Source of the DNA: an uncultured Candidatus Saccharibacteria bacterium
GTDB lineage: Bacteria; Patescibacteriota; Minisyncoccia; Phycocordibacterales; DATDWN01
Reading direction: 5' to 3'
Length of the DNA: 64,000 nucleotides
NCBI GenBank assembly: GCA_964603545.1
Contig: CAZRVD010000002.1
Span: 46,854-110,853, forward strand
A model generated the notes under the pieces. The model was not told the origin of the DNA. It saw only the letters and a list, made by a program, of their open reading frames with translations, and did no database searches. This document shows positions 9,614 through 58,071 of the stretch, piece after piece; the stretch's first letter is position 1, and each line of letters starts with the position of its first letter. A program made the translations under genes and the position numbers.

Positions 9614-9617
9614 ATTT

Positions 9618-24881: not shown

Positions 24882-24948
24882 ATGGTGAGACAGATGATTG
24901 TTACTATGTTATTATTTATTCAATAATAATTAATTTTTTATTAAAAAC

Positions 24949-25599: not shown

Positions 25600-25602
25600 C
25601 AT

Positions 25603-27189: not shown

Positions 27190-27203
27190 TTAAATAAAAA
27201 TAA

Positions 27204-38918: not shown

Positions 38919-39040
38919 AAACTTTCACAATTTGTGCTAAATCCGATGTGAGAAATTAAAAATGTGAGAAGCCTTATTAGACATAAGGTGACGAGTATTT
39001 TTAATTTTGGAACGAGGAGTTAGCCAAATTTGAAAATTTT
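38919..39040 (-). repeat. Post-stop structured repeat, copy B (begins at stop of M23 peptidase gene)
   Basis: Sense strand reads TAA-AATTTTCAAATTTGGCTAACTCCTCGTTCCAAAATTAAAAATACTCGTCACC-[CCTTAT GTCTA ATAAGG]-CTTCTCACATTTTTAATTTCTCACATCGGATTTAGCACAAATTGTGAAAGTTT. Confidence 0.85.
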
Positions 39041-42255: not shown

Positions 42256-42270
42256 AATAAGCCTAAAAAC

Positions 42271-43062
42271 ATGTTAAAAAAGAAATCACTTGGTCAAAAT
42301 TTTCTAAAATCTCCTAAAGTGGTTAGTGATATTATTTCTGCTGGAAAAGTAAAGGGTAATGACACAGTACTCGAGATAGGTCCAGGTGAAGGAGTAATGA
42401 CCACCGAACTTTTAAAAACTGGAGCAAACGTGATTTGTATTGAGAAAGACGATAGATTAATACCAATACTTCAAAACAAATTTTCAAAAGAAATAGCTTT
42501 AGGACAACTTATACTTATTCACGAAGATATCTTAAAACTTAATCTCCCGAAATCCGACTTCAGTAAAAAAGGGGGATATAAAGTAGTAGCTAATATTCCT
42601 TACTACATTACAGGACAAATAATTCGAATGTTTCTAGAAAGTGAGAATAAACCGACTTCAATGACTCTACTGGTTCAAAAAGAAGTTGCGGAAAGAATTG
42701 TTGCGAGAGATAAAAAGGAAAGCTTACTCTCTCTTTCTGTAAAAGTTTTTGGTGATCCAAAAATTATAAGAGTTGTGGGTAGGGGCGCATTTAATCCAGC
42801 GCCGAATGTAGACTCAGCTGTGATAAACATAGAAAATATTTCGAAAGAAAAACTTGATAAACTTAATCCAAAATTTTTCTTTGAAGTTATTCATGCTGGA
42901 TTTGCTCATAAAAGAAAACAGCTACTGCCAAACCTCGCAAATAATTTTGAAAAAGAAAAAATCGTAAAGGCTTTTGAAGATTTGGAAATGGATTTGAAAA
43001 TACGTGCAGAAGATGTTTCATTAGAGAAATGGATAAAACTCGCCAAATTACTTACAAAATAA
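42271..43062 (+). CDS. rsmA: 16S rRNA (adenine1518/1519-N6)-dimethyltransferase
   Basis: 263 aa. LGQNFL...VLEIGPGEG...ANIPYYIT are the KsgA/Dim1 signatures. Confidence 0.9.
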   Translation: MLKKKSLGQNFLKSPKVVSDIISAGKVKGNDTVLEIGPGEGVMTTELLKTGANVICIEKDDRLIPILQNKFSKEIALGQLILIHEDILKLNLPKSDFSKKGGYKVVANIPYYITGQIIRMFLESENKPTSMTLLVQKEVAERIVARDKKESLLSLSVKVFGDPKIIRVVGRGAFNPAPNVDSAVINIENISKEKLDKLNPKFFFEVIHAGFAHKRKQLLPNLANNFEKEKIVKAFEDLEMDLKIRAEDVSLEKWIKLAKLLTK

Positions 43063-43063
43063 T

Positions 43064-44722
43064 ATGAAAATGATAAATAAGATTTTGGATAATATAAAAA
43101 ATCAAGAAATAACCATAGCTGGATGGGTTTACAGTTTCATAGGAATACTTTTTGTGCGTTTTATATTCGAATCACTGTCGAGTCCATCAATTTCTGGGAT
43201 AATTCCTTCCGACCCTTACACTTTAGTACACATTGGTATGTATTTTCTTGCTGTCACCTTGGGAACAATATTAATTTTTGGTCACTTCACGAACGACTAC
43301 AAAAATTCTTCCAAAATAATTCTCTTTGGACTGCCTCTACTTTGGTTAGCCCCTATCATAGATATTTTAATAAGTAAGGGAGAAGGTTTTAGGATGTCTT
43401 ATGTATTTGATAGTGGCAGAGATTTAATTTTTGATTTTCTAACTTTTTTTGGACCGAACCTCACACAAGGTGCGACTGTGGGAATCCGCATTGGCATAGC
43501 ACTTTCACTTTTAGGAATTGGGTATTTGATTTGGCTTAAAAATAACAGTTGGAAGAGAACTTTGTCAGGAGTTTTCTTAATATATTTATTTGTATTTTTT
43601 ATGGCTGTTTTACCTGGATTTGTATACACACTCACACATCTTGGATATTCACCAGCACAGGGGACTGAAATAATAGATTATCTAGAGAAAAATATTTTAA
43701 AATCAACCATTTCTCACAACACATTACGAGAAGGTTTTTCATCTGTACCAACTATAAGATTTTTAGAACTTGGTTTTGACAAGCTTTTGTCACAAATTCT
43801 ATTTATCCTATCAAGCATACTTGGAATTTTACTTTTTTGGAAAATAGACCGAACAAAATTTTGGGCAGTTATAAAAAACTCACGTCCAGAAAGAATAAAC
43901 TTTTATACAGCATCACTTTTTTGTGGAATTGGATTTGCTTATATAAATAGATTGGGAAACCCTTTTGTTTGGATGGATATTTTTGGAATTGTCTGTCTAC
44001 TTATTTCTTGGACAGCACTCTGGATGCATGCTGTACACCTAAACGACGTAAATGATGTTGAGATAGACAAAATATCAAACAAGGAAAGGCCTCTCATAAA
44101 AAATGATTTGAGCGTAAGTAATATGAAAGAGACTGGTAAACTGTGGCTCTGGGTTGCTCTACTTGGTGCTTGGTCTGCCGGGTTTTATCCATTTTTCATG
44201 GCACTAGTTTACGTCGCTTGCTCATACATATATTCATCTCCTCCACTCCGGCTTAGAAGACTGCCACTGGTGCCGTCATTTCTCATAGGAGTCGCTTGTC
44301 TTGCAACCATTCTTGCTGGTTTCTTTTTTGTCTCTACAAACAAAGAGATAGAAACTTTTCCAACATTTTTGGCCGTAGGAATAGTGATTATGGTTACTTT
44401 AGCTATAAACTTTAAGGATATAAAGGACGTAGAGGGCGATAAGGCGAGTGGGATAATGACCATACCAACACTTTTTCCAAAAAAAGGAGTGAGGATTGTT
44501 GCCTTACTTTTTGCTATTAGTATTCTACTTGTGCCAGTTTTTCTGCACTTTTACCTCCTTTATATAATTTCTATACCTTGCGCTGTTATTGGATACAAAC
44601 TCGTAACGAGACAGCCTTATGTTGAAAAATATATTTTCGTTCTTCGATTCTTTTTCTTAGCAGGAATAGCTATTTCGTACCTCATAATTTTCTGGTTGGC
44701 AGATGTTTATAACTTACTCTAG
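43064..44722 (+). CDS. Polytopic membrane protein with C-terminal UbiA-family prenyltransferase domain
   Basis: 552 aa with more than 10 TM helices. It carries two Asp-rich UbiA motifs, NDVNDVEIDK and DIKDVEGDK. Confidence 0.65.
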   Translation: MKMINKILDNIKNQEITIAGWVYSFIGILFVRFIFESLSSPSISGIIPSDPYTLVHIGMYFLAVTLGTILIFGHFTNDYKNSSKIILFGLPLLWLAPIIDILISKGEGFRMSYVFDSGRDLIFDFLTFFGPNLTQGATVGIRIGIALSLLGIGYLIWLKNNSWKRTLSGVFLIYLFVFFMAVLPGFVYTLTHLGYSPAQGTEIIDYLEKNILKSTISHNTLREGFSSVPTIRFLELGFDKLLSQILFILSSILGILLFWKIDRTKFWAVIKNSRPERINFYTASLFCGIGFAYINRLGNPFVWMDIFGIVCLLISWTALWMHAVHLNDVNDVEIDKISNKERPLIKNDLSVSNMKETGKLWLWVALLGAWSAGFYPFFMALVYVACSYIYSSPPLRLRRLPLVPSFLIGVACLATILAGFFFVSTNKEIETFPTFLAVGIVIMVTLAINFKDIKDVEGDKASGIMTIPTLFPKKGVRIVALLFAISILLVPVFLHFYLLYIISIPCAVIGYKLVTRQPYVEKYIFVLRFFFLAGIAISYLIIFWLADVYNLL

Positions 44723-44742
44723 TAGTGTGATATTATTTACGC

Positions 44743-45585
44743 ATGCCTAGTAATAGAACTCTTGCTGTTTTGGTACTCTGCCTTGGTATTGTCGTATCTG
44801 TATGGTTGTTTTCTAAAAAATCTACATTTACAAATCAAGATGTTGTATTAAAAAACACACAACCTGTCTCTGTAGATTCTATTATAAAGATAGAAGGTGA
44901 AAAAAATGATGATTGGAAAAAAATCCTCGTAAACGTTGATCCAAAAAACCAAAAGGTTATAGACCTTACAAAAAACAATACCGTTAGAGAAGACGACACG
45001 ACTCTAACAGACCAGATGTCTAGAGATTTTCTATCTCAATATCTAATGGCAGTTAAGGAAGGGATAGATGTCACCCCAGAAGTTGCCTCGCAAATAGCCC
45101 AAAACACTCTTTCCCTGCCTGGATACAAACAAGGTGCCGTTGTTTATATAAAAGAAAATCTAAGGGTGAGTACCAAAACTGACCCAGAAAGCATGAGAAT
45201 ATACAGAGAAAAAATAAACCAGGCTATGATATCAGTATATTTCAACGTAAAAGATGACCCAATAGCAATCGTGGTTAAAGCGCTTCAGGAGGAAAATGAA
45301 AACGAGTTAAAAAAATTTGACCCTATTATAACAATAAACAAAGATGCTATAAAAAGCTTGCTGGATATGGAGGTACCCCCAAGCGCCGTAAAGGTTCACT
45401 TAGACCTATTGAATACATCTTCATTAATACTTTCTGACTTAGAATCCATGAGAGTCGCTATTTCTGACCCTGTTAAAGTTTTTTCCGCTATAGGAAGTTA
45501 TTCGACGCACATAAGTAGTTTTAGTACCGCTCTCTCAAATATGAGTCTCTACCTAACAAAGAATACTCAGATCTTATTGTTTTAG
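44743..45585 (+). CDS. Hypothetical membrane-anchored protein
   Basis: 280 aa with an N-terminal TM (LAVLVLCLGIVVSVWLF). Confidence 0.45.
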   Translation: MPSNRTLAVLVLCLGIVVSVWLFSKKSTFTNQDVVLKNTQPVSVDSIIKIEGEKNDDWKKILVNVDPKNQKVIDLTKNNTVREDDTTLTDQMSRDFLSQYLMAVKEGIDVTPEVASQIAQNTLSLPGYKQGAVVYIKENLRVSTKTDPESMRIYREKINQAMISVYFNVKDDPIAIVVKALQEENENELKKFDPIITINKDAIKSLLDMEVPPSAVKVHLDLLNTSSLILSDLESMRVAISDPVKVFSAIGSYSTHISSFSTALSNMSLYLTKNTQILLF

Positions 45586-45674
45586 TTTTCAACATAATTC
45601 CTAGTTTTACAAAGCTTTCTTTAATATAATAGTATACAATTAGTGTGTAGATTTGTTTTTCTAATACATTCCTT

Positions 45675-47330
45675 ATGAAGAAATATTTGATAGTGATAAT
45701 AATGCTCTCGTTATTGTCATTTTCTGTCCCAAATAAGACCTATGCAGTGTATACCGATGTGGCAAACACATTAAAAGAGTACGGGCTTGACTCTGTTGCC
45801 TATATGGTTGCAAAAACAGTTACAAGAAAACTTACAACTAAGACGGTAAACTGGATAAACTCTGGATTTAAAGGAAATCCTGGATATATTCAAAACCCAG
45901 ACCAATTTTTCCTTGATGTTGGAGATGACTTGGCATCACAATTCCTGTCACAAGCTGGGGTGAATAAATTATGTAGCCCATTTAAAGCTCAGGTGCGTCT
46001 AGCTTTGGTAAAAAACTATATTGATGACAGTAAGAACTACTCTTGTACATTAAGTATTTTAAAAAACAATTACGATGCTTTCACTAGAGATTTTAGTCAA
46101 GGTGGATGGGAAGGTTGGTTTGAAGTAAGTCAAAATAGTCAAAATAATCCTTATGGTGCCTATCTTGATACAAAAAATGAATTATCTATTAGAATAGGAA
46201 CGGAGAGAGAACAGAAGCAGAAACAAATAGACTTAAGTGGAGGATTTCTAAATCTTCAAAGATGCCCAAAGGGTATGGAGTTCGTTGATCCAGTATCACT
46301 AAAAAAAATTTGTGGAACCAAAGAGGAAACTGTCACTCCAGGAACTGTTATAAGTGACCAACTCAAGGAGACTTTAGGTACTAAGTGGGGAGAACTTGTA
46401 GCTGCAGATGAATTCAATGAAATAATTACTGCTCTTGTTTCACAACTTATAGGACAAGTTGCTGGTGCAACCGGAGGTCTTTTTGGAGCAAGTGAGAAAA
46501 CTATTTCGGCTTCTGGTGCAGTCCAACCATCTTTAGTAGATCAAATAGGAGCAGAGGCACAACCTCTCGTAAATTACCAAATAGGCGCAACAGATCCAAC
46601 GCTTAACTGTACATCCACTGGAGGCGGAACCGACCAGTATGGCAATACCACCGGAGGAACAACGGACTGCCAGTCCACCCCTGGGGGAGTGAGTGGCCTA
46701 CCTGCATGGCCTATAGGTTCTGGGGGAAGTGGAGGAGGATCTTGTCCAGCATACACACCGAATCCGAGTCACGATTGTACTAAAGTAGATAGTGGAGCTG
46801 TCCTTGCAATATTAAATAAATATCCACCTTCAAACGCAGGGATCACCCAAGCTGAAGTTGAGGTAAAACAACTATACCCTTGGGCATTTGTTATACCTCA
46901 TGCAAGACTTGATAAATTTGATTTTGGTAACGGAATGGGTGTTGATGTGATTGTCGGTGCCGTTGCTAATGGGGTTGGTAAGAGTTGGACATGGAATGTC
47001 GAGTGCGCTTGCAACAGAAACCCTTCCGGAAGCCCCGCAACAAATCCACCAATACCACTTCCTGGAGTGGGAACATACCTGCTGACCGTGGATATTGGTG
47101 GAGCTGGATCTGTCACAGACAATGTTGACACATGTCAGAATTTATCTGGAATTGCCACAACAACATGTAGCAAACCTTATCCGATAGACTCCTTTGTTTC
47201 AGTAACTGCAATCCCTGCCGTAGGAAGAACATTTGTTGGTTGGAGTGGGGCATGTGCGGTATTCAATCCAAGTAATGTTTGTTACGGAAACATAACCATG
47301 AGTGGAACAATCGGTGCGACTTTCAGATAG
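45675..47330 (+). CDS. Hypothetical secreted protein with Gly/Thr-rich region and C-terminal bacterial repeat domain
   Basis: 551 aa. Signal peptide, and a C-terminus GGAGSVT...C...YP.DS.VSVTAIPAVGRTFVGWSGAC that resembles the Listeria-Bacteroides / InlB B-type repeat. Confidence 0.5.
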   Translation: MKKYLIVIIMLSLLSFSVPNKTYAVYTDVANTLKEYGLDSVAYMVAKTVTRKLTTKTVNWINSGFKGNPGYIQNPDQFFLDVGDDLASQFLSQAGVNKLCSPFKAQVRLALVKNYIDDSKNYSCTLSILKNNYDAFTRDFSQGGWEGWFEVSQNSQNNPYGAYLDTKNELSIRIGTEREQKQKQIDLSGGFLNLQRCPKGMEFVDPVSLKKICGTKEETVTPGTVISDQLKETLGTKWGELVAADEFNEIITALVSQLIGQVAGATGGLFGASEKTISASGAVQPSLVDQIGAEAQPLVNYQIGATDPTLNCTSTGGGTDQYGNTTGGTTDCQSTPGGVSGLPAWPIGSGGSGGGSCPAYTPNPSHDCTKVDSGAVLAILNKYPPSNAGITQAEVEVKQLYPWAFVIPHARLDKFDFGNGMGVDVIVGAVANGVGKSWTWNVECACNRNPSGSPATNPPIPLPGVGTYLLTVDIGGAGSVTDNVDTCQNLSGIATTTCSKPYPIDSFVSVTAIPAVGRTFVGWSGACAVFNPSNVCYGNITMSGTIGATFR

Positions 47331-47352
47331 TAAACGTTGAAGACAAAAAGAA

Positions 47353-49356
47353 ATGAAAAGATTTTTTCCTTACATACTAATAATTACAATACTGACAGTA
47401 TTTTTTAATGTAACTCCAACAGTGGAAGCTCAGGCGGCAGTACCAAACCTACCCGCTTGTCAGTACATTGATTATATCGTTTATGTTCAAATAACAAATA
47501 AACCTTGTATTGGAACAGGAGTTTTTGATAAGGGAGTGGTGTACCAAGTTGATCCACCTGGATCAACTAGTTGGTTAGGATGTCTTACATTTGGCAGTTT
47601 CTCTAGCTGTCTTGTAAACGGCGCCACAAATGTACTAGCTAGTTTGCTATACACAGTGCTGACCATGGTATCGGCACTTTTGTGGATTGCGGGAACGCTT
47701 CTGGATTTTGTCCTGCGGTATACGATTGTCGACATGAAAAAACACCTGGATATGCTTACCGGCATAAACACCGCCTGGAAAGTTATAAAAGATTTGATGA
47801 ATATGGCCTTCATATTTATTTTAGTATATGAAGGAATAAAACTAATTATTGGACAGGGGAGTAGAGAGACCATTAAAAATTTTATTGTGGCAGTTGTTAT
47901 CGCTTCACTTCTGGTAAACTTCAGTTTGTTTTTTACAAAAGTACTTATAGATGCGTCTAACGTAGTGACTCTTGGTTTTTATGATTCAATTATAGACAAC
48001 ACGGCAATAACTGTTGGTGGTGGAACAACAGGCGGTGGCACAGGGGCCTCCAGATCTATAAGTGGTCTCTCAGTACCATTTATGAACGCTCTTGGTCTTT
48101 CTAGTTTTTGGTCTGGGGTGTCGTTTGATGCGATAAGAAGTCAGACTGGAGGAAATTTAAATATGATGATACTCCCACTTATGGGAATAATTCTGTTTCT
48201 AATAGTATCTTTTGTATTTTTTGCTGTAGCAATAATGTTCACTATTAGATATCTGACACTCATAATACTTCTCATCCTTTCACCAGTTGCATACATGGGA
48301 GCGGCTCTGCCTTTTATGAAAACCTATGCAGATGATTGGTGGAAATCACTTAACGGCCAACTTCTCTTCGGTCCAATATATATGGTAATGACTTGGGTTG
48401 TTCTACTTCTCATGTCTAGTTCTGGTTTTATAGTTAAGGGAAGTTGGGGAGATGTATTAAGTGGAGTAAACAACATTGGAACACCCTATGACCAACAGCC
48501 TATCAGTTTAGTTTTCAACTTCGTAATTATTATCGGACTTGTTATCGCATCACTGACAATCGCAAAAAGCACAGCAACCAAAGGTTCAAAACATATTGGA
48601 GAAGCAACAAAGAGACTGACCGCATTTGCGGGTGGAGCAGTGATGGGTGCGGGAGCTTCAGGTTTTAGAAGCACTATTGGACGTGCTGGCCAAGCTGTCG
48701 CTAGTAATCAATGGCTTCGTGATAGAGTACCTGATAGTCGAATAGCAAGAACATTAGTAAAAGCTGGTGAAAAAACTGGGGCTGCGAGTTTTGATGTTAG
48801 AGCTACTGAAATTGGTAAGGCAACTGGAACTGGTAAGGCAGGTGGCAAAGGTGGTTACCAAGCAGAAAGGGAGAAAAAAATTAATGAGAGAATGAAATTT
48901 GCTGAACAACTTTCAGACACCGTAACAGGAGCTGACGTTGAGGCGGAAATGGAGAGAAGGGGCTACGATAAAGTATCCAATGAAGGAAGGGTTAACGCAT
49001 ATGTTGTGGCTGGAAGATCAAGAGCTGACGCAACCGCTCTTGTTGCAAGAGAGGCAGAACGTGAAAGACGTGCAGCTCAAGTACAATTAATAGGTGACGC
49101 GGCTCAAAATACAACACTAAGACAGGAGCGATATTTACACAATCTAAGCCAAACAAGATGGTATACTCCAAATCTATATAGTGGAGTTTCTGAAGATGCA
49201 GAAGCGGCAAGAAGAATGCGCGAAGGTAAGAAAGCTAAAAAAGGAGGTGTAGCTAAACTAATAGCTGATTTTGCAGCAGCAGCCAAAGAAGAAGAGGGTG
49301 AGCAATCAGCAACAACCCCCGCTACACCTGCCACAGGAACACCACCAACACCATAA
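47353..49356 (+). CDS. VirB6/TrbL-like polytopic membrane protein (T4SS-like cluster)
   Basis: 667 aa. Signal peptide, at least 6 TM helices, and a C-terminal charged/Pro-Thr tail. It lies next to the VirB4 ATPase. Confidence 0.5.
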   Translation: MKRFFPYILIITILTVFFNVTPTVEAQAAVPNLPACQYIDYIVYVQITNKPCIGTGVFDKGVVYQVDPPGSTSWLGCLTFGSFSSCLVNGATNVLASLLYTVLTMVSALLWIAGTLLDFVLRYTIVDMKKHLDMLTGINTAWKVIKDLMNMAFIFILVYEGIKLIIGQGSRETIKNFIVAVVIASLLVNFSLFFTKVLIDASNVVTLGFYDSIIDNTAITVGGGTTGGGTGASRSISGLSVPFMNALGLSSFWSGVSFDAIRSQTGGNLNMMILPLMGIILFLIVSFVFFAVAIMFTIRYLTLIILLILSPVAYMGAALPFMKTYADDWWKSLNGQLLFGPIYMVMTWVVLLLMSSSGFIVKGSWGDVLSGVNNIGTPYDQQPISLVFNFVIIIGLVIASLTIAKSTATKGSKHIGEATKRLTAFAGGAVMGAGASGFRSTIGRAGQAVASNQWLRDRVPDSRIARTLVKAGEKTGAASFDVRATEIGKATGTGKAGGKGGYQAEREKKINERMKFAEQLSDTVTGADVEAEMERRGYDKVSNEGRVNAYVVAGRSRADATALVAREAERERRAAQVQLIGDAAQNTTLRQERYLHNLSQTRWYTPNLYSGVSEDAEAARRMREGKKAKKGGVAKLIADFAAAAKEEEGEQSATTPATPATGTPPTP

Positions 49357-49360
49357 AACC

Positions 49361-50260
49361 ATGGATACAGAAATAAAAAAAATCATTGAGGAAAGAATAA
49401 AAAAATTACCACCCAGTGTAGCGAAAGCTATTAGGGGTATCCCTTGGTTAGAGACAATAAAAAATATTGCAAAAAATAATAACCTTAGTGAAGATAAAGA
49501 AATATCATTAATAATTGAAACGACTATTTTAGTATACGGGATTGAATCTCCAAAAAAATATGCCGAAGATTTAATTGTAAACCTTGGGGTGGGGGATGAT
49601 TTAGCTGAAAAAATACTAAAGGAAATAGAAACTCAAATCCTTATTCCAATACAAACCCTTACTGGTGGTGTTGGCCCCACAGAAGAGCAGAAAAACTCAC
49701 TATCTATCTCGTCAGCAGAGACACGAGCCCGTGAAACAGCAAACAAATATAGCTTAACCAGTAGCCAAACAAATACTTTAGTAAATAATACACTCTCTTC
49801 AATTAGAAATGGCCAAAAAGTCTCTCCGGAACAGTTAGTAACAAATTTAAACATATCCAAACTCCTCGCTGAACAAATTACCTTAGACCTAGAAAAAAGA
49901 GTTTTTGAACATGCTGTCAAACAAGTTTCACCAGAAAAAAGAGAGGTAGAAAAACCCAAACCGGAAACTCCCTCAAAAATTCCAGAGATCAGGCCAGATA
50001 ACCTTCCTATGCAGGGCAGTAACTTTATCCCAACACCAAAACCAGCATTTCAAAACGAGACTTTGGATAAACAAAGGGTCGGAAACTCTTCTGGTATTGG
50101 AGTACCAAGATACGCGACAGACAACACTCCACCAATAGCTACTTCTCCAGCACCGAGTGCAAGAAATATTATAGAAAAGAAACTAAATGATATTACCGTT
50201 GGCAACAAACCACCAGAGACAAAGTACGAGAAGGATCCGTATAGAGAACCGTTAGGGTAA
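49361..50260 (+). CDS. Hypothetical protein
   Basis: The track ORF begins at 49271 and overlaps the preceding gene. The ATG at 49361 directly follows that gene's stop. Confidence 0.45.
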   Translation: MDTEIKKIIEERIKKLPPSVAKAIRGIPWLETIKNIAKNNNLSEDKEISLIIETTILVYGIESPKKYAEDLIVNLGVGDDLAEKILKEIETQILIPIQTLTGGVGPTEEQKNSLSISSAETRARETANKYSLTSSQTNTLVNNTLSSIRNGQKVSPEQLVTNLNISKLLAEQITLDLEKRVFEHAVKQVSPEKREVEKPKPETPSKIPEIRPDNLPMQGSNFIPTPKPAFQNETLDKQRVGNSSGIGVPRYATDNTPPIATSPAPSARNIIEKKLNDITVGNKPPETKYEKDPYREPLG

Positions 50261-50283
50261 ATAAAATGCTTTAAAATTTAACA

Positions 50284-50721
50284 ATGCGTTACCAAATACC
50301 ACAATTTATTGATGTAGAAGACAAAATCATTGGGCCCTTAACCCTAAAGCAATTCGTGTATCTTGCTGGTGGAGCTGGAATGGCTTTTGTTATTTATACT
50401 TATATACCTATATACATAGCTGTGATACTAATAGCTGTAGTGATACCGCTCTCTATTGCTCTAGCTTTTTATAAAATAAATAACAAACCATTCGTAGATT
50501 TTCTTGAATCTGCTTTCATGTTTTATACAAAACAAAACCTTTATATATGGAGAAAAGAGCAAAAGAAGATAGTAAAATCAGAAGCAGATGTGGCCAAAGA
50601 ATCTGCTCAAGTGTATGTACCAAGACTTTCCGATAGTAAACTGAAAGAATTGTCGTGGACCTTAGACATAAATGAAAATCTTAATCCATTAACCGGACAA
50701 AGTGGCAAAAATACAAAGTAA
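50284..50721 (+). CDS. Small two-TM membrane protein, PrgI/VirB3-like by context
   Basis: 145 aa with a hairpin TM pair (LAGGAGMAFVIYTYIPIYIAVILIAVVIPLSIALAFY), immediately upstream of the VirB4 pieces. Confidence 0.4.
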   Translation: MRYQIPQFIDVEDKIIGPLTLKQFVYLAGGAGMAFVIYTYIPIYIAVILIAVVIPLSIALAFYKINNKPFVDFLESAFMFYTKQNLYIWRKEQKKIVKSEADVAKESAQVYVPRLSDSKLKELSWTLDINENLNPLTGQSGKNTK

Positions 50722-50759
50722 CTTAAAGTTTTCTATTATAATTCTGATATAATAATGGC

Positions 50760-51392
50760 ATGGCTGTAAATTCTAAAGCAACACAAGAATTCGTTCCGAT
50801 AAAAGAAGTCAGAGATGGTATTGCTGTGCTCAAAGATGGCTCCATGCGAGGTATTGTTTTGTCTTCTTCTCTAAACTTTAGCCTAAAATCGGAAGACGAG
50901 AGAAAAGCTATTGTTCTACAGTTTCAAGACTTTTTGAATTCTCTAGACTTCAGCGTACAGATATCTATTCAATCAAGAAGACTGGATATACGGCCATACA
51001 TAGCCCTTTTAGAGGACAGGTACAAGGAACAAACCAATGACTTAATGAAAATTCAGACCAGAGAATACATTGATTTCATAAGAAAGTTTACAGAAACAAC
51101 AAACATAATGACCAAAAGTTTCTTTGTCGTTGTGCCATATGATCCAGCTCTTATAAATATAAAAAGTGGTACTGGATTTTTCAAAAAAACATCTGTAAGT
51201 GAAGATCAGATTAAAAAAGAAGCTTCTTTTGAAGAAAACCGGACTCAGTTAGAGCAAAGAGTCTCTGTTGTAGAACAAGGTCTCTCAAGATGTGGAATAA
51301 GAGTAATAAGACTGGGAACAGAAGAAGTTATTGAGCTTTTCTATAAGATATTTAATCCAGGGGATACAGAAAAACCAATTAAATCATCATAA
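50760..51392 (+). CDS. VirB4/TrsE-family conjugation-type ATPase, N-terminal fragment (separated from remainder by one in-frame TAA)
   Basis: 210 aa. EFVPIKEVRDGIAVLKDGSMRGIV resembles the VirB4 N-terminus. It is in the same frame as 51399-53210. Confidence 0.6.
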   Translation: MAVNSKATQEFVPIKEVRDGIAVLKDGSMRGIVLSSSLNFSLKSEDERKAIVLQFQDFLNSLDFSVQISIQSRRLDIRPYIALLEDRYKEQTNDLMKIQTREYIDFIRKFTETTNIMTKSFFVVVPYDPALINIKSGTGFFKKTSVSEDQIKKEASFEENRTQLEQRVSVVEQGLSRCGIRVIRLGTEEVIELFYKIFNPGDTEKPIKSS

Positions 51393-51398
51393 AAAAAC

Positions 51399-53210
51399 AT
51401 GGGAATATTTGATTTTTTAAAAAAGAAAAAAGAGGAGCAGGAAATTTCAACAATTCTCCCACAAGAGATATATGATTCTAGTACTCTTGAATTGAAAGAC
51501 GTCATTGCTCCAAGCGCTCTAAAGGTTACCCCGAAAGAAATCAACCTTGGTGAAAAAGTTTTACGAAGTTTCTTTGTTATCTCATACCCAAGATACCTTT
51601 CTGATAGTTGGTTTTCTCCAATAATTAACTTGGATAAGATATTCGATATTTCAATATTTGTTAAACCCATAGATACGGCGGGAGTTCTGCGCACCTTTCA
51701 AAAAAAAGTGGCTGAGGTCCAGAGTCAGATAAATACCAGAGAAGCAAAGGGGTTAGTTAGAGACCCGATGCTAGATACTGCCTACCAAGATCTTGAGAAC
51801 CTTCGAGACAACCTCCAGCAGGCTCAGGAAAGACTTTTTGACGTCGGGCTTTATATTACGATGTACGCAGATTCTAGTGAAGAATTGGACAAAGTAGAGT
51901 CAGAAATAAAATCAATACTAGAAGCAAAACTTGTATATCTCAAACCCGCACTTTTCCAACAAGAACAAGCTTTTAAAGCTGCAATACCAATAGCCACAGA
52001 TGGACTCGAGGTTTACAGCAAATTAAACTCTTCACCATTATCTAGTTTGTTTCCATTTGTTTCATTTGATCTTACTTCTGACAAGGGGATTCTTTACGGA
52101 ATAAATCGTCACAACTCATCCCTTGTTTTGTTCGATAGGTTTTCTTTGGAAAACTATAACTCCATAACATTTGCAAAATCTGGTGCAGGAAAATCCTACA
52201 TGACTAAGATAGAAATTCTTAGAACATTAATGTTTGATACTGATGTTATGGTGTTGGACCCTGAAAGAGAGTACGAATACCTAGCAGAAGCTGTTGGGGG
52301 AAGATATTTTAATATTTCTCTAAACTCTGAACACCACATAAATCCTTTTGAACTTCCAACTCCTGGAGAAGACGAGTCATTCGCAAACGTACTTCGCTCA
52401 AATATCATAAACCTTGTCGGTCTTTTCCGTATCATGATGGGAGGACTGACCCCAGAAGAAGACGCTATTATAGACAGAGCAATAACAGAAACTTATGCAC
52501 TTAAAGACATTACAGCAGACTCAAACTTTGAAAATGTAGAGCCCCCACTACTTTCAGACTTTGAACTCGTTCTTTCTGGAATGGAGGGGGGAGACTCTCT
52601 AGCACAGAGACTAACAAAATATACTAGAGGTACTTGGGCAGGGTTTATAAACAGACCGAGTAATGTTGATATAAATAAAAGATTTATCGTCTTTTCTCTT
52701 CGCGACATGGAAGATGAGCTCAAGCCTATCGCCATGTACATCATAATGCACTATATATGGAACATGATAAGAAAGAAGTTAAAGAAGAGACTTCTTGTTA
52801 TAGATGAGGCTTGGTGGATGATGAAATCCGAAGACACAGCTTCTTTCCTTCTCTCTCTTGCAAAAAGAGGAAGAAAATACTATCTAGGACTTGCTACAAT
52901 AACCCAAGACGTTGATGACTTCTTAAAATCCCCTTATGGATTGCCCATTATAACAAACTCTTCTATTCAAATACTTTTGAAACAATCCCCAACAGCTATA
53001 GACAAACTACAACAAGCCTTTAGTTTAACTGATGAAGAAAAATATCTGTTATTAGAATCTGATGTTGGAGAGGGAATATTCTTTGCTGGATTAAAACACG
53101 TAGCTATAAAGGTTATCGCTTCATATACTGAGGATCAAATAATAACATCAGACCCTTCACAAATTTTATCGATTAAAAAGGCTAGGGTTGATTTAGAAAA
53201 TAGTAAATAA
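51399..53210 (+). CDS. VirB4/TrsE-family conjugation-type ATPase, C-terminal portion
   Basis: 603 aa. Walker A FAKSGAGKSYMTK and Walker B LLVIDEAWWMM. Confidence 0.8.
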   Translation: MGIFDFLKKKKEEQEISTILPQEIYDSSTLELKDVIAPSALKVTPKEINLGEKVLRSFFVISYPRYLSDSWFSPIINLDKIFDISIFVKPIDTAGVLRTFQKKVAEVQSQINTREAKGLVRDPMLDTAYQDLENLRDNLQQAQERLFDVGLYITMYADSSEELDKVESEIKSILEAKLVYLKPALFQQEQAFKAAIPIATDGLEVYSKLNSSPLSSLFPFVSFDLTSDKGILYGINRHNSSLVLFDRFSLENYNSITFAKSGAGKSYMTKIEILRTLMFDTDVMVLDPEREYEYLAEAVGGRYFNISLNSEHHINPFELPTPGEDESFANVLRSNIINLVGLFRIMMGGLTPEEDAIIDRAITETYALKDITADSNFENVEPPLLSDFELVLSGMEGGDSLAQRLTKYTRGTWAGFINRPSNVDINKRFIVFSLRDMEDELKPIAMYIIMHYIWNMIRKKLKKRLLVIDEAWWMMKSEDTASFLLSLAKRGRKYYLGLATITQDVDDFLKSPYGLPIITNSSIQILLKQSPTAIDKLQQAFSLTDEEKYLLLESDVGEGIFFAGLKHVAIKVIASYTEDQIITSDPSQILSIKKARVDLENSK

Positions 53211-53221
53211 AAACGAACAAA

Positions 53222-53647
53222 ATGGACAAAGAACCTCAAATCAAAGACACTGTAGCGTTTCTAATGATATTTACCGCTCTTTTTTTTGATGCCTTACAAG
53301 CTTTAATTGGATGGATACCCATGGTCGGAAACGTCATTTCTGATGTGATTAGTATATTTGTATTTATGACTTTTTTGTTGTGGTTCCACATGTATGGGGT
53401 AAAAATGATGACCCCAAAAAGATTCACGTCCCTAGGACTAGGAGGTGTCATTGAAATGATTCCTTATGTAAACCTACTTCCGGCATGGACTCTTGTCGTT
53501 ATTTACCTTATTGGAACAACCAAAATTAAAGAGTTGTTTGAAAAAAACCCAGGAGTGGCTGGTTCGATATTTAGGCTTGGTGAAAAAATAAAAAACCTGA
53601 ACAAAACCGGGGAGCCACCACACGTACCGCTCATAGACGAGCGTTAA
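53222..53647 (+). CDS. Hypothetical membrane protein
   Basis: 141 aa with 3 TM helices. Confidence 0.45.
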   Translation: MDKEPQIKDTVAFLMIFTALFFDALQALIGWIPMVGNVISDVISIFVFMTFLLWFHMYGVKMMTPKRFTSLGLGGVIEMIPYVNLLPAWTLVVIYLIGTTKIKELFEKNPGVAGSIFRLGEKIKNLNKTGEPPHVPLIDER

Positions 53648-53709
53648 TTGTCGAGAACTTTGTGAATAACAAAAGGCCACTAAAAAATGATTATGGTATT
53701 ATTATAAAG

Positions 53710-54729
53710 ATGAGATATCTTATTGTTATATCACTATTTATTATAACTTTACTATTTGTTGGTTTTTTTGATTACTCTAGTACAGCATCGGCTCAAGGTC
53801 TTGGAATGAATGATGTTATAAACATTGATTTGGTACCTGCGGTACCAAAGGCAAACGAAACTGTATATGTATTTCTAACTAGTTATGCAACAAATATAGA
53901 CGCTGCCAGTATAACCTGGAGAGTTAATGGAAAAACAATTAAATCTGGCGTTGGAGAAAAAACTTTTAATTTCTCTATGGGAGACGTTGGTAAAATCACA
54001 ACTCTTAGTGTTACAGTAAAAACAACTGATGGTTCCGTAATTGAAAGATCAATCCCCTTAAAACCAATAAGTGTTGATCTTGTGTGGCAAAGTAACGGTT
54101 TTGTCCCGCCGTTTTATAAAGGAAAAGCCCTTTTTAGTCATCAAAATCAAGTGACTGTGATAGCCTCACCACACATACCTAATTCAAGCGGTGGAGAAGT
54201 AAGTCCTAAAAATATCATATATAAGTGGAGGAAGAATGGCTCAGTAGATGAAGGTGCTTCTGGGTTTGGTAAAAACACCTACACTTTTGAAGGATCGCTT
54301 ATATCAAGACCTGTTACTATTGGAGTTGAAGTAACCGCCACTGGTGGAGAAGGAATTGGTTACGCAACCATAAATTTAACCCCAAATGAGCCTGCTATAA
54401 TTTTTTATAAAAAAGACCCTATCTATGGAATAGAATTCCAAAGAGCCTTAGCTGGAACAGTTGAACTAAGTAATTCAAACGAAATCAATATTATTGGCGC
54501 ACCTTTCTTTTATAGTACGGATGACTATTTATCTGAAAAACTAATCTATAAATGGTCAATTAATGGGTCTCCAATAAATAATGCGGTCAGTCAAAGAAAT
54601 CAAGTGCTTAGACAAAAAGAGGGAACTAGTGGGTCATCCAATATTTCCTTGTCTATAGAAAATCCAGGTAAAATACTACAATACTCTTCTTCTAATTTCT
54701 ATCTGCAATTCAAGGACAATAATCAATAA
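53710..54729 (+). CDS. Hypothetical secreted protein
   Basis: The signal peptide MRYLIVISLFIITLLFVGFF starts at the ATG at 53710. The track start at 53662 is probably too early. Confidence 0.5.
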   Translation: MRYLIVISLFIITLLFVGFFDYSSTASAQGLGMNDVINIDLVPAVPKANETVYVFLTSYATNIDAASITWRVNGKTIKSGVGEKTFNFSMGDVGKITTLSVTVKTTDGSVIERSIPLKPISVDLVWQSNGFVPPFYKGKALFSHQNQVTVIASPHIPNSSGGEVSPKNIIYKWRKNGSVDEGASGFGKNTYTFEGSLISRPVTIGVEVTATGGEGIGYATINLTPNEPAIIFYKKDPIYGIEFQRALAGTVELSNSNEINIIGAPFFYSTDDYLSEKLIYKWSINGSPINNAVSQRNQVLRQKEGTSGSSNISLSIENPGKILQYSSSNFYLQFKDNNQ

Positions 54730-54740
54730 TGTAGTAAAAA

Positions 54741-55607
54741 ATGAAAAAAAATATAAAAAAAATAATACCCATAATTACACTGATCATCATGTTAGTGCCA
54801 GGATTTTTTGGAGTGTACGCCCAAACTCCACCACCGAACAACCCGACCCCTTATACCGTACTAACAACACTACCAGGAATAGGGACCCAAACAACACTAA
54901 CTAGTTATCTGCCAGCGGCCTTTAATTTAGCTATTGGTATAGCTGTTGCTCTCGCTTTCGTTATGATTACTTTTGGTGGAGTAACTTACGCCACATCGGA
55001 CGCAATAACAGGCAAGGCAAAAGGAAGGGAGTATATTGAAGATGCATTATGGGGATTGCTTTTAGTAATTGGATCATATGTAATATTAAACACCTTAAAT
55101 CCGCAAATTCTTAACTTTAGTCTGCGTTTTGACAGACCAACTGTACCAGTCTCTAGCGTAACTTTAATCGCAGGAACTCCACTAGACCCCGCAGCCAGAG
55201 CTGATGATGCCTCTGTTAGAGCTACTCTGGTTGGCATAGGAATAAATCACCCCCCTTGTCTTGCTGGAGAAACACAAGGATGTACAAACGTTAACGGACT
55301 TCCAGCTGGGGCTGTTACTGGCCTCTTAACACTGAAGAAGGCATGCAATGGCTGTACTATTATGATAACTGGTGGAACTGAAGGTGGACATGCAACTCAC
55401 GGGCCAGGAAAGCAAATCGTAGACCTAAGGCCTGAAAACGCTTTAAATTATTATATTTGGGGGGATGGCAACACCCCGCCAGACGGAACAACAAGAACAA
55501 AAAACTTACCTAACGGTCAGTCAATAAAGTTTGTTTATGAAACGGCAGGAGGAAATGTCAGGGGAACTTCAACGGGAGCGCATTGGCATACTGTAATATC
55601 AAATTAA
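54741..55607 (+). CDS. T4SS pilin-like (signal peptide + two TM) protein fused to a C-terminal Gly/His-rich domain
   Basis: 288 aa. The N-terminal half has a signal peptide, a Pro-rich linker, and AIGIAVALAFVMITFGG...ALWGLLLVIGSYVILN. Confidence 0.4.
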   Translation: MKKNIKKIIPIITLIIMLVPGFFGVYAQTPPPNNPTPYTVLTTLPGIGTQTTLTSYLPAAFNLAIGIAVALAFVMITFGGVTYATSDAITGKAKGREYIEDALWGLLLVIGSYVILNTLNPQILNFSLRFDRPTVPVSSVTLIAGTPLDPAARADDASVRATLVGIGINHPPCLAGETQGCTNVNGLPAGAVTGLLTLKKACNGCTIMITGGTEGGHATHGPGKQIVDLRPENALNYYIWGDGNTPPDGTTRTKNLPNGQSIKFVYETAGGNVRGTSTGAHWHTVISN

Positions 55608-55608
55608 T

Positions 55609-56829
55609 ATGTCAAAAAAAACCATATTTACGATAACGTTTATTATTCTCCTAATAGTCCTGGCTGGACTAGTAGGATACTACCTAAATAAAAATGATGA
55701 GAGTACTCCTAATGGAACTCCAAGTATTTTTAGAAATTTTTTCCCTTTTGGTGGAAACGACCTTCCAGACAATAACGACACAACCACACCAGAGGATGAC
55801 GGTGATGTAGTAGAAGAACCTGTAGATTTTATACAAAAACTAAGGAGAATCTCTGGAGAGCCTGTGGCTGGAGCAGGACTCCTTGATGTTAAAGCAGGAA
55901 CTATTGTACGTTATATAGAAAAAGCTACAGGGCACATCTTTGAAGTGGAGCTGTTCTCTCCAAGACAAGGTAGAATATCGAACACAACAATTCCACAAGT
56001 GTATGATGCTGTTTGGGGCAACAAAAATGAATCCTTGATGGCTAGATATTTAAAAGAAGATGACCAAACAATAGACACTTATTCACTTTCTATAAAAGAT
56101 ACCAGTACTACAACGGAAAACACGATTTCAGGGATCGCATTTCCGGTAAATCTTAGCGATGTTTCGGTTTTTGGAAATAGTGTTTTTTATCTAGAGAAAA
56201 ATAGTAATTCATCGTACGGCTATATCTCCACATTTAGTGGTTCTGGTAAAAGACTTATTTGGAACTCTCCTCTTACTGAACTTACATCTCAATACGTAAA
56301 TGCAAAAACTGTAGCGCTTACTACAAAACCAGAAGAGAGCACCCCGGGATTCCTATATTTTGTTGACACTAGTACCGGATCAATTCGAAATATCCTTCAA
56401 AACATACTTGGACTTTCTGCTCTTGTTAATGACAATGCTACTGAAGTGTTGTATCTAAACCAAGGAGGTAGATCAGATTTATATTTATATAATTTAAGCA
56501 CTAGAGCAAACTTGAAACTAACGCCCTCTACTTTCCCAGAGAAATGCGTGTGGAGTAAAAAAGATAGAACTGTAGTATATTGTGCCGTACCGAGAGAATC
56601 TGTGGAAACAAATAGTCTAACCTTATGGTATAAAGGTCAAATTCAACTAACGGATGATATTTGGAAATTTGATTTAAAAAATAACTCATCAAGTATTACT
56701 CTGGACCTTAGCAAGGAGTCTGGGGAAACGATAGATGTAATAAAACCTATCTTGTCAGATAGCGAACAGTATTTGGTATTTGTAAATAAAAGAAACAACT
56801 CTCTATGGAGTTTGGACTTGAGTAAATAA
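55609..56829 (+). CDS. Hypothetical membrane-anchored protein
   Basis: 406 aa with an N-terminal TM (IFTITFIILLIVLAGLVGYYL). Confidence 0.45.
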   Translation: MSKKTIFTITFIILLIVLAGLVGYYLNKNDESTPNGTPSIFRNFFPFGGNDLPDNNDTTTPEDDGDVVEEPVDFIQKLRRISGEPVAGAGLLDVKAGTIVRYIEKATGHIFEVELFSPRQGRISNTTIPQVYDAVWGNKNESLMARYLKEDDQTIDTYSLSIKDTSTTTENTISGIAFPVNLSDVSVFGNSVFYLEKNSNSSYGYISTFSGSGKRLIWNSPLTELTSQYVNAKTVALTTKPEESTPGFLYFVDTSTGSIRNILQNILGLSALVNDNATEVLYLNQGGRSDLYLYNLSTRANLKLTPSTFPEKCVWSKKDRTVVYCAVPRESVETNSLTLWYKGQIQLTDDIWKFDLKNNSSSITLDLSKESGETIDVIKPILSDSEQYLVFVNKRNNSLWSLDLSK

Positions 56830-57549
56830 TTAAACTACTGCGATGGATTTATGATATTTTCTCTTTATGTAGAGCTCTTGAACAATAGAAAATAAGTTAC
56901 TGACAAAGAGATATAGGGCAACGGCAGAGGAGATGTTATATATAATAATTGTTATAAATGGTGGTAGAAAATATTTCATTTGGAAAGACATAGCCTTTGC
57001 CATTTCACTCTGTTTACTTTTGTCTTGTGACTCTGTCTGACCAGAAGTAGCTATGCTTGTTTGAAAGTAAGTAGTAATACCAACAAGGAGAGCCAGGATT
57101 AGACTTTTTTCTGCCATATTTATAAGTCCTAAGAACATCATATCTACAGAAGGTGGAATAGAAATAAAACTATATAGAAGACTTGTGTTTATTTCCGGTA
57201 GTCCTATAAATACCCTATAAAGACCAATAAGAATTGGTATTTGAATAAGAATAATAAAAATACCAGTGAATGGATTCATCCCTTTTTCCTTATAGTACTC
57301 CATTATCTTCACCCCTTGTTCGTTTTTGTCTTTATATTTTTCCTTAATAAGAGCAAGATCTTTTTCTGCACTCTTCATCTCGAGTTGGGACCTGGAAGCC
57401 TTGATGGAGAGGGGAAGTAGTACAAGTTTGGTAATGATAGTAAATATAATAATCACCACACCAACATCAAAAAATGGTAGTAGGTTTATTAAAAATACAA
57501 GGCCACTATATAGTGGCTCGGATATGATGGTGTGAAATATTGATGTCAT
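56830..57549 (-). CDS. yidC: Membrane protein insertase YidC (short form)
   Basis: 239 aa with 5 TM helices, in the rpmH-rnpA-yidC synteny. Confidence 0.85.
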   Translation of the reverse strand: MTSIFHTIISEPLYSGLVFLINLLPFFDVGVVIIIFTIITKLVLLPLSIKASRSQLEMKSAEKDLALIKEKYKDKNEQGVKIMEYYKEKGMNPFTGIFIILIQIPILIGLYRVFIGLPEINTSLLYSFISIPPSVDMMFLGLINMAEKSLILALLVGITTYFQTSIATSGQTESQDKSKQSEMAKAMSFQMKYFLPPFITIIIYNISSAVALYLFVSNLFSIVQELYIKRKYHKSIAVV

Positions 57550-57553
57550 TTGA

Positions 57554-57901
57554 CTATATTATCACAAGAGTAGAAGAAAGTAATCCGTTGATCTCTTTCT
57601 CTAACAGAGAATAGTCCTTTTCAAAACCCTTTTTATATAAAAAGAACACAAAAAACCCAGGTTTAATCTTTTTCAAATTTCTGCTAATCACAGAATATCC
57701 TCGCCTTCTAAGTTTATTTCTGTCTACTGCTCTTTTTAAAACCTTTTTAGAAACCGAAAAGGAGAACTTGCTGTCTGGCAAACCATTGCCTACATCCATT
57801 TTAGCTAAATAAAGGGTAAAGGAAGGAGAATTATACCTCTTTCCTTGGCTCATTATTTGACCAAAATATTTTCTCTCTATTCTTCTTTTTTTAGGCAACA
57901 T
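57554..57901 (-). CDS. rnpA: Ribonuclease P protein component
   Basis: 115 aa with the basic RNR motif KKVLKRAVDRNKLRRR. Confidence 0.85.
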   Translation of the reverse strand: MLPKKRRIERKYFGQIMSQGKRYNSPSFTLYLAKMDVGNGLPDSKFSFSVSKKVLKRAVDRNKLRRRGYSVISRNLKKIKPGFFVFFLYKKGFEKDYSLLEKEINGLLSSTLVII

Positions 57902-57933: not shown

Positions 57934-58071
57934 TTAGACGGTAGAAAGTTTAGTCCGACCCTTTCTTCTTCTTCTAAGGAGTGTGTTTTGCCCTGTTTTT
58001 GACTTACTTCTGGTTAGAAATCCGTGAGCTCTTGCTCTTTTTCTCTTTTTCGGTTGATATGTTTGCGACAT
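57934..58071 (-). CDS. rpmH: 50S ribosomal protein L34
   Basis: Minus strand reads [45 protein letters not shown]. It is below the ORF-track cutoff. Confidence 0.9.

Follow-up and report, generated by a model that had tools for sequence, protein, structure and literature searches.

The closest described relatives of the locus analysed here are the type IV secretion systems (T4SSs) of Patescibacteria, the candidate phyla radiation (CPR). The cultivated saccharibacterium Southlakia epibionticum cannot grow on its host without an apparent T4SS (SEML1_0006-0019), which resembles Gram-positive conjugative systems and includes essential pilins and in which no coupling protein or relaxase is recognisable (Wang et al., 2023, Cell, PMC10633639). 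Besides T4SS genes, few systems are known to be indispensable to a cultivated CPR bacterium in its epibiotic life. A survey of 3,035 Patescibacteria genomes (Quinonero-Coronel et al., 2025, Microb Genom, PMC12102498) describes a monophyletic VirB4 clade nested in the mating-pair formation class MPF_FATA, with TrsD as the most abundant partner, usually adjoining virB4, with PrgI, VirB6 and VirB2-like pilins nearby and with almost no relaxases; in Paceibacteria dnaA, dnaN, rnpA, ksgA and rpmH are close to virB4. The subject of the present analysis is a block of ten genes (g1 to g10) at positions 45675-56829 of a 64-kb stretch of contig CAZRVD010000002.1, referred to below as the window (Table 1). 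This locus is a further member of the published kind and fits it feature for feature.

The block is read as a chromosomal T4SS typical of Patescibacteria, in this case of a Paceibacteria-type genome, of MPF_FATA descent, which has lost its DNA-processing half and would serve contact-dependent exchange with a host; the probability of this reading is put at roughly 0.85. The initial annotation of the stretch had proposed a T4SS-like machinery of the reduced kind reported in CPR bacteria, and that proposal is upheld, the core components having been verified (VirB6 at the level of the fold only) and the same clade, parts and position having been published (PMC12102498; PMC10633639).

The proposed translocon core and its inheritance

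All ten open reading frames (ORFs) of the block lie on the + strand, with intergenic gaps of 1-38 nt. The boundaries agree exactly with those initially annotated, as does the co-directional arrangement, whereas the earlier count of eleven genes is corrected to ten, the number also given by the public gene calls for the contig, which were made independently. Relatives of g2 were sought in one genome per species, which gave at least 340 genomes; 80 loci were fetched with 10 kb flanks and all window proteins were mapped onto them, and the per-gene counts given below refer to this set.

The protein encoded by g6 is a VirB4 ATPase of the CD1110/MPF_FATA type, scoring 376 bits against the NCBIfam model NF045971 (cutoff 325) and matching PF19044 with E = 4.5e-29; Walker A (AKSGAGKS) and Walker B (LLVIDE) motifs are present. 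The nearest plasmid-borne VirB4 proteins share at most 36% identity with it, and the closest among the matches listed are all from monoderm bacteria (Streptomyces, Clostridium and Bacillus). An ORF of its own, g5, ends 6 nt upstream and encodes a TrsD-like protein (NF041427, E = 3.8e-6) for which the VirB4 models NF045975 and NF045971 also give matches in their N-terminal parts and which aligns with residues 23-197 of a Clostridium VirB4 of 797 aa (E = 4e-9); the public gene call describes it as TraC-like (PF26593). Since g5 matches the VirB4 N-terminus, VirB4 is truly encoded in two pieces, in line with the split ATPase annotated initially. The two ORFs are also separate in 68-70 related loci, and the two-piece VirB4 is the normal state there rather than a frameshift. 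In the pGO1 subclass, too, TrsD is a free-standing protein (PMC12102498).

In two related genomes the VirB4 orthologues are 1264-1267 aa long (L020:15272-19075 and L052:9515-13309) and carry an insertion of ~660 aa inside Walker A (GAGK|S...VHN|S) with LAGLIDADG-type motifs. To judge from the sequence, this insertion resembles an intein that includes a homing endonuclease, which would fit the extreme conservation of the site.

Upstream of the VirB4 pair, the small membrane protein g4 scores 42.7 bits against PF12666 (PrgI; cutoff 27), with a weak TcpE match in addition, and occurs in 74 of the 80 loci; its earlier designation as PrgI/VirB3-like therefore stands. For g2, hydropathy gives a signal/transmembrane (TM) segment and six more hydrophobic segments, seven in total, followed by a charged C-terminal tail of ~200 aa. 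The protein is 100% identical to one from 'Parcubacteria group bacterium Gr01-1014_46' (assembly GCA_007376085.1). An AlphaFold (AF2) model of residues 1-480, built on 53 homologues, has a predicted local distance difference test score (pLDDT) of 77.8, and the six best Foldseek matches to it in the PDB are all TrwI/VirB6 of R388, at marginal scores (probability 0.51-0.98, E = 0.04-0.6). A weak match to PF19590, for which the name TrbL_3 is taken from a contig annotation, is found in about one third of the g2 orthologues listed, and g2 lies upstream of PrgI and VirB4, as does VirB6 in the Clostridium plasmid pCDC3875. The family profile of g2 matched PDB entries through its low-complexity tail only (for example huntingtin polyQ), and these matches were rejected; single-sequence PDB searches with g1, g2 and g9 gave nothing beyond chance. 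From its modelled fold, g2 is probably VirB6-like. The VirB6/TrbL-like protein of the initial annotation is thus retained in its polytopic character, fold and position, but no Pfam, NCBIfam or PDB model matches the window protein at the sequence level, and of the VirB6 and VirB3 models singled out there for checking only PrgI/VirB3 scores above its cutoff. A VirB8-like protein was not identified in the block, which agrees with the literature.

Gene order is shared across the 80 loci, flanks included, as uvrD-ksgA-(UbiA-like, p280)-g1-g2-(g3)-PrgI-TrsD-VirB4-g7-g8-g9-g10-yidC(-)-rnpA(-)-dnaA. On the left flank uvrD is present in 63 loci, ksgA in 68, the LysM-M23 gene in 58 and comM in 45 (the last two lying left of uvrD); on the right flank yidC is present in 50, rnpA in 23 and dnaA in 25, most loci ending before dnaA. 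Median identity to the window protein is 82% for VirB4 (62 orthologues), 69% for TrsD and 54% for PrgI, compared with 56% for uvrD, 52% for ksgA and 47% for yidC among the neighbours and 33-42% for g1, g2, g7, g8, g9 and g10. The VirB4 motor is therefore more constrained than the sampled neighbouring housekeeping genes and the exposed parts diverge fast, a pattern that fits an essential machine touching a variable partner. Because the order recurs at a fixed site and VirB4 is better conserved than its housekeeping neighbours, the block is a vertically inherited core locus and not an integrated element.

An integrated conjugative element, or its decayed remnant, that had landed beside dnaA would account for T4SS genes whose ancestry lies in plasmids or integrative and conjugative elements (ICEs). 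This alternative is effectively refuted by the same genes, order and core neighbours in 80 species-level genomes, by the intactness of every ORF together with the 82% conservation of VirB4, and by a GC content of 0.36-0.41 in the block, no different from its surroundings (window mean near 0.37). As had been noted initially, ORF scans found no relaxase, VirD4 or integrase inside the block; among the window ORFs of at least 120 aa on the gene-dense strand none was found either, except for a Xer-like recombinase ~11 kb from the block. Flanking direct (att-like) repeats did not occur above chance, the only exact 17-mer pair lying within coding regions. The combination of relaxase, VirD4 and flanking att sites that would indicate an integrated element is thus not found within the 64-kb window, and the earlier view that this is not a canonical conjugative element holds: there is no relaxase, type IV coupling protein (T4CP), integrase, att-like repeat or GC anomaly, and the order is kept throughout the 80 genomes.

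Dozens of third-party metagenome-assembled genome records titled 'uncultured Candidatus Saccharibacteria bacterium' (loci L003-L077; titles as deposited) carry a collinear locus that is 40-55% identical to the Parcubacteria/Zambryskibacteria-type locus of the window. These labels look like placeholders.

The pilin g9, the secreted protein g1 and accessory proteins

Residues 1 to ~125 of g9 comprise a signal peptide and a VirB2-type two-helix pilin module, and residues ~140-288 (nt 55158-55607) form a Cys-rich C-terminal domain. The pilin family PF18895 (T4SS_pilin) is matched by 42 of 44 g9 orthologues (best E = 1.6e-10), and the AF2 model (pLDDT 87.9, ~95 in the C-terminal domain) shows a helical hairpin and an alpha/beta domain, so that the pilin-like protein with an extra C-terminal domain, as first annotated, is confirmed. 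Residues E214, H217, H220, D228, E267, H281 and H283 are invariant in the family and four cysteines are nearly so (at least 90%); the invariant residues of the C-terminal domain are carried on strands of the model. Relatives of this domain number 868 among 1.84 billion protein-cluster representatives. Nearly all of the 150 relatives listed are 270-330 aa long with the domain at the C-terminus, which indicates that the fusion to a pilin is the usual architecture.

A sister version of the C-terminal domain (VTEAWPPT..H..CH..G.CVD ... HFSVY) is found in 14 of 57 orthologues. The top 19 PDB matches to its profile are the N-terminal domains of Sonic, Indian and Drosophila Hedgehog (best E = 1.7e-5, over ~95 residues), and a direct hhalign comparison with the Hedgehog N-domain gives a probability of 87% (E = 3.7e-6). 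The Hedgehog N-terminal signalling domain has the fold of zinc DD-peptidases (LAS). The subfamily to which the window protein belongs matches VanY (E = 0.031) and Peptidase_M15_4 (E = 0.0017) weakly in three of 39 members; in hhalign comparisons it is linked to the sister subfamily with E = 4.6e-4 and, weakly, to Shh with E = 0.012 in the segment ITGG-TEGGH..HGPG..VDL. The PDB matches of its own profile, to Nse1, were spurious. These profile comparisons make it fairly likely that the C-terminal domain of g9 is a peptidoglycan peptidase, predicted to stand in for VirB1.

The first gene of the block, g1, has an orthologue in 74 of the 80 loci. In its product, ~270 conserved residues make up the N-terminal domain; a linker rich in Gly and Thr leads from it to a C-terminal part, which varies between genomes. 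The initial description as a secreted repeat protein is correct as to secretion, a signal peptide being present, but a search for tandem repeats found none and only the Gly/Thr-rich linker remains of that feature. In many orthologues the motif AQWVV(T/W)DP.N..QN follows directly after the signal peptide, and the N-termini match PF13605 (DUF4141) with a best E of 3.8e-8 and up to 33 bits, four of ten lying above the 30-bit cutoff. When the motif AQWVV.DP.N..QN of one orthologue (P0296) was compared with 72,556 plasmids it was found in 21 places, all N-terminal, of which 11 are annotated as trbJ and five as DUF4141, the sole annotated matches. These plasmid trbJ/DUF4141 genes lie between VirB4 and a VirB6 homologue (TrbL or TraJ) in T4SS loci of Pseudomonas, Bacteroides and Paraburkholderia. 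TraI of CTnDOT, a DUF4141 protein, is homologous to VirB5 (Guglielmini et al., 2014, PMC4027160), and the 2025 survey reports neither a VirB5 homologue nor an adhesin in the Patescibacteria clade (PMC12102498).

The helical body of VirB5 (~200 aa) was not recognised in g1. Because the similarity ends after 28 columns and the family profile has no PDB match, g1 is not counted as a member of the VirB5 family; by sequence it shares the N-terminal VirB5 motif and the place beside VirB6. The C-terminal domains differ by genome and include Ig-like, InlB B-repeat, F5/8-C (discoidin) and PKD domains and, in one case, Metallophos. The g1 family is accordingly read as comprising putative VirB5/TrbJ-motif proteins with an adhesin-like tail.

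Among the remaining proteins of the block, the soluble protein g3 is detectable in 39-52 of the 80 loci at ~32% identity and has no family match in Pfam or NCBIfam, its orthologues included. The small membrane protein g7 (49 loci) has no Pfam, NCBIfam or PDB match and is read as a lineage-specific accessory protein; as a second pilin or pilin paralogue it was ruled out (hhalign probability 0.4%). For g8, present in 61 loci, only weak matches to Ig_3, BiPBP_C and GldM were obtained, and it is read as an extracytoplasmic accessory protein. The last protein, g10, occurs in 55 loci, and neither a family match nor a PDB match to its family profile was found. A Pfam scan of 145 orthologues of g3, g7, g8, g10 and the upstream protein p280 gave only scattered Ig, PKD and TSP3 matches.

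Proposed function and its alternatives

The block is read as derived from the machinery with which single-membrane bacteria conjugate (MPF_FATA), its DNA-processing half having been lost. A membrane translocon would be formed by PrgI, the VirB6-like protein and VirB4 with its two pieces (TrsD and ATPase), and VirB4 would power the assembly of the g9 pilin into an extracellular stalk or filament. The g1 protein could be a stalk or tip subunit that caps or seats the g9 filament and presents a species-variable binding domain, the variable tail binding the partner cell. The zinc-hydrolase-like domain fused to the pilin may open peptidoglycan, either of the cell's own wall or of that of the host, and g7, g8 and g10 would be lineage-specific parts of the envelope. 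The whole machine would serve contact-dependent exchange with the host, by protein export or by import of host molecules, rather than conjugation.

A more specific version of this scheme is doubtful as a whole: that the Paceibacteria T4SS would make a VirB2/VirB5-style filament, carry a hydrolase of the Hedgehog/DD-peptidase fold on every main subunit and display a stalk or tip with the TrbJ/VirB5 motif and interchangeable host-binding domains. To our knowledge, no other single-membrane bacterium makes a VirB2/VirB5-style extracellular filament. If this version were true, the machine would be a wall-cutting, host-specific conduit for tapping another cell. If the readings of g1 and g9 hold, these two proteins would mark the end of the machine that touches the host and hint at its route across the wall.

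Several observations weigh against the host-exchange reading or against the assignments on which it draws. The role itself is predicted for the Paceibacteria T4SS from its genes and from the Saccharibacteria homologue. The VirB6 assignment of g2 depends on marginal scores: TM-scores against TrwI are 0.33-0.47 normalised by the shorter target and 0.19-0.30 by the query, and a comparison of the g2 family with the Gram-positive CD1112 VirB6 (hhalign) gave no signal. In g9, the window protein scores 20.2 bits against PF18895, below the cutoff of 26.6; the Hedgehog/hydrolase match is significant for the sister subfamily only, to which the window subfamily is linked by weaker profile comparisons, and two fold searches with the full-length model were swamped by helical hairpins and did not confirm a hydrolase fold. 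The match of the g1 family to TrbJ/DUF4141 (hhalign probability 96.4%, E = 1.1e-9) extends over only 28 N-terminal columns, and g1 of the window keeps only a shortened and degenerate form of the motif, VYTDVANT. The placement in the core chromosome next to oriC, as initially annotated, is borne out by the adjoining dnaA-dnaN and rpmH-rnpA-yidC genes but not by the location of the origin itself: DnaA boxes (E. coli-type consensus) occur at chance level and are not clustered at dnaA, and the GC skew in the window tracks the gene strand, with no switch marking an origin. Finally, the inspection covered 64 kb of the genome, and a coupling protein could lie elsewhere.

The last point leads to the possibility that the block conjugates and moves DNA between cells, with the genes for its relaxase and coupling protein at another place in the genome. 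Both VirB4 and the core gene order derive from conjugative MPF_FATA systems, and most genomes of Patescibacteria are reported to have VirD4 homologues, usually at a great distance from virB4 (PMC12102498). The same survey, however, finds relaxases in only 103 of the 3,035 genomes, and in S. epibionticum the distant T4CP homologue is non-essential whereas the T4SS genes are essential (PMC12102498). With the fixed core address, the housekeeping-like conservation and flanks in which no oriT-like or mobile-element features were found, conjugation in trans is very unlikely.

A machine for DNA uptake, comparable to ComB of Helicobacter or Ced of Sulfolobales and serving nucleotide supply or competence, is assigned a similarly small likelihood. 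CPR cells are described in the literature as unable to make nucleotides, a comM-like gene lies ~7 kb upstream of the block, and VirB4 has a weak partial match to CedB (NF041017, 32.7 bits); this match is restricted to the P-loop region and stands against a cutoff of 700 bits, and Pfam and NCBIfam scans detected no CedA or ComB partners. The window also holds a complete set of type IV pilus genes outside the block. According to a 2025 review (PMC12857230, citing Wang et al., 2023), competence of S. epibionticum needs ComEC and type IV pili, a comEC deletion leaves viability unaffected and the T4SS is essential, the essentiality of the Saccharibacteria T4SS thus being independent of ComEC-mediated competence. 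Uptake of DNA, which the initial annotation had named as a possible function, is not supported by that account, in which competence is ComEC-dependent and dispensable whereas the T4SS is essential.

Adhesion alone is a further possibility, the block then building only a pilus for host attachment with nothing passing through it. It is an improbable explanation, though a better one than conjugation or DNA uptake. A pilin accompanied by a VirB5-motif protein with variable adhesin-like domains would suit such a pilus, as would the lack of a coupling protein in the block and in the scanned window ORFs, and in known systems VirB4 is the ATPase of pilus biogenesis (PMC4027160). Type IV pili, however, which mediate host adhesion in Saccharibacteria (PMC12857230), are already encoded in the genome, and more than adhesion is suggested, without being proved, by the extreme conservation of VirB4 and by the fact that an extended VirB6 channel protein has been kept. 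Conjugation in trans, DNA uptake and an ICE remnant are disfavoured, whereas the sequence data do not separate the adhesive pilus from contact-dependent exchange with the host, the reading preferred here.

The type IV pilus set lies ~35 kb away from the T4SS. It encodes a PilB-like ATPase (T2SSE and MshEN), PilC (T2SSF) and two prepilin-type proteins that have N-methylation motifs; one of these two is 600 aa long and contains a CarboxypepD_reg domain. A further ORF of the set, of 489 aa, is unannotated. A second group of genes encodes large secreted proteins with modules of the cellulosome type, namely a 978-aa protein with Laminin_G_3 and dockerin, a 216-aa cohesin protein, a 528-aa dockerin protein and a 421-aa fn3/purple-acid-phosphatase-N protein, which may form a cohesin-dockerin surface assembly. 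A dockerin protein is among the essential envelope proteins of S. epibionticum (PMC10633639).

Surrounding genes and comparison with known systems

Table 1. Positions in the window of the T4SS block, its neighbours and other genes mentioned in the text.
Feature	Position	Strand	Length (aa)	Description	Basis or remark
Type IV pilus set	4367-11375	-		PilB-like, PilC and prepilin-type proteins	
Secreted-protein group	21945-28469	+		Dockerin, cohesin and fn3 proteins	
Xer-like recombinase	33879-34820				
comM-like	37299-38846	+		Mg-chelatase ATPase	Pfam match
LysM-M23	39039-40136	-		LysM-peptidase M23 wall hydrolase	Pfam match
uvrD/pcrA	40315-42255	+			Pfam match
ksgA	42271-43062	+			Pfam match
UbiA-family	43064-44722	+	552	Prenyltransferase	Between ksgA and T4SS
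p280	44743-45585	+	280	Membrane-anchored protein	Directly upstream of g1; one TM segment
g1	45675-47330	+	551	Secreted protein	Signal peptide; public gene call starts 45702
g2	47353-49356	+	667	Polytopic membrane protein, probably extended VirB6/TrbL-like	Fold, position
g3	49361-50260	+	299	Soluble protein, Pro-rich tail	No TM segment
g4	50284-50721	+	145	PrgI/VirB3-like membrane protein	PF12666
g5	50760-51392	+	210	TrsD-like, free-standing N-terminal domain of VirB4	NF041427
g6	51399-53210	+	603	VirB4 ATPase, CD1110/MPF_FATA type	NF045971, PF19044
g7	53222-53647	+	141	Small membrane protein, 3-4 TM segments	Hydropathy
g8	53662-54729	+	355	N-terminal anchor/signal, beta-rich Ig-like domains	One N-terminal TM segment
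g9	54741-55607	+	288	VirB2-type pilin with C-terminal domain	PF18895 family, AF2 model
g10	55609-56829	+	406	N-terminal TM anchor, large extracytoplasmic domain	Last gene of block
yidC	56830-57549	-			Pfam match; convergent with g10
rnpA	57554-57901	-			Pfam match
rpmH	57934-58071	-	45	Ribosomal protein L34	Read from translation; below size limit of ORF list
dnaA	58183-59523	+			Pfam match
dnaN	59735-60835	+			Pfam match

To the right of the block, the stop codon of g10 abuts that of yidC, and the position of rpmH between rnpA and dnaA completes the canonical rpmH-rnpA-yidC/dnaA-dnaN arrangement. The operon is transcribed toward dnaA (40315-56829 against dnaA at 58183) and would run head-on to replication if the origin adjoins dnaA; the lowest GC content of the window, 0.29, is found at 59-61 kb around dnaN. 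A promoter and terminator scan gave fewer sites than in shuffled sequence. To the left, the UbiA-family protein has an N-terminal membrane extension of ~300 aa and is found at this place in only 17 of the 80 loci. The protein p280, for which a scan of the window protein and its orthologues gave no family match, is found there in only 38 loci; it may be an accessory gene of the T4SS. A second wall hydrolase acting alongside the T4SS could be provided by the LysM-M23 enzyme. Elsewhere the window contains four tRNAs and common core genes (pgk, tpi, nusA, ppa, tig, clpP and rny).

Comparison of g9 with Hedgehog N-domains and DD-peptidases (LAS, MEROPS M15-like) aligns their zinc-binding core with the pattern strand-TE..H....H..G..VD and the C-terminal H(W)H of the g9 family. 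Unlike these proteins, the g9 domain follows a T4SS pilin hairpin within one polypeptide and has a Cys-rich N-terminal lobe. The g1 family has in common with VirB5/TrbJ (MPF_T) and with TraI/DUF4141 of Bacteroidetes conjugative transposons (MPF_B) the motif AQWVV.DP.NL.QN after the signal peptide and a gene that adjoins the VirB6 homologue. The remainder differs, TrbJ and TraI being helical proteins of ~210-245 aa, whereas g1 continues with an unrelated conserved domain of ~220 aa and variable adhesin-like domains. The literature searched contained no report of the VirB5-motif protein or of the hydrolase-pilin fusion, and both are offered as leads rather than findings.

With the MPF_FATA systems of Firmicutes (CD1110/CD1112/CD1115 and the pGO1-type TrsD-TrsE) the locus shares, with g2 counted as a probable VirB6 and g9 as the predicted hydrolase, the core order VirB6 - PrgI - (small ORF) - VirB4 - (small ORF) - cell-wall hydrolase. 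The order in C. botulinum pCDC3875 is VirD4 - x - VirB6 - PrgI - x - VirB4 - x - SLT hydrolase, from which the window differs in having no VirD4. The differences from these systems also include the lack of a relaxase along with VirD4 (CD1115), a VirB4 identity of at most 36% and the absence of detectable sequence similarity in VirB6. The wall hydrolase is a separate SLT transglycosylase in pCDC3875, whereas that predicted in the window has a different fold and is fused to the pilin. Pilin and VirB5-motif protein are both present in the window and lacking from Gram-positive systems.

The resemblance is closest to the T4SSs of the Patescibacteria clade. Here, as there, a VirB4 of MPF_FATA type has a separate TrsD-like protein directly upstream, genes for PrgI/VirB3, a VirB2-like pilin and a protein that is probably VirB6-like lie near virB4, and the cluster is without relaxase or coupling protein and chromosomal, near dnaA, dnaN, rnpA and ksgA as in Paceibacteria. 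Assembly GCA_007376085.1 was not found in the part of the genome table of the 2025 survey that was searched. Two features differ from the published descriptions. The window has a single pilin gene, to which a hydrolase-like domain is fused, whereas arrays of 2-11 short pilins are emphasised for Saccharimonadia and Microgenomatia, and it has a g1 family with a TrbJ/VirB5 N-terminal motif, whereas the papers on this clade report no VirB5 homologue or adhesin. The locus adds nothing categorically new to this group; it provides a compact reference for the Paceibacteria version of the machine, with every part mapped.

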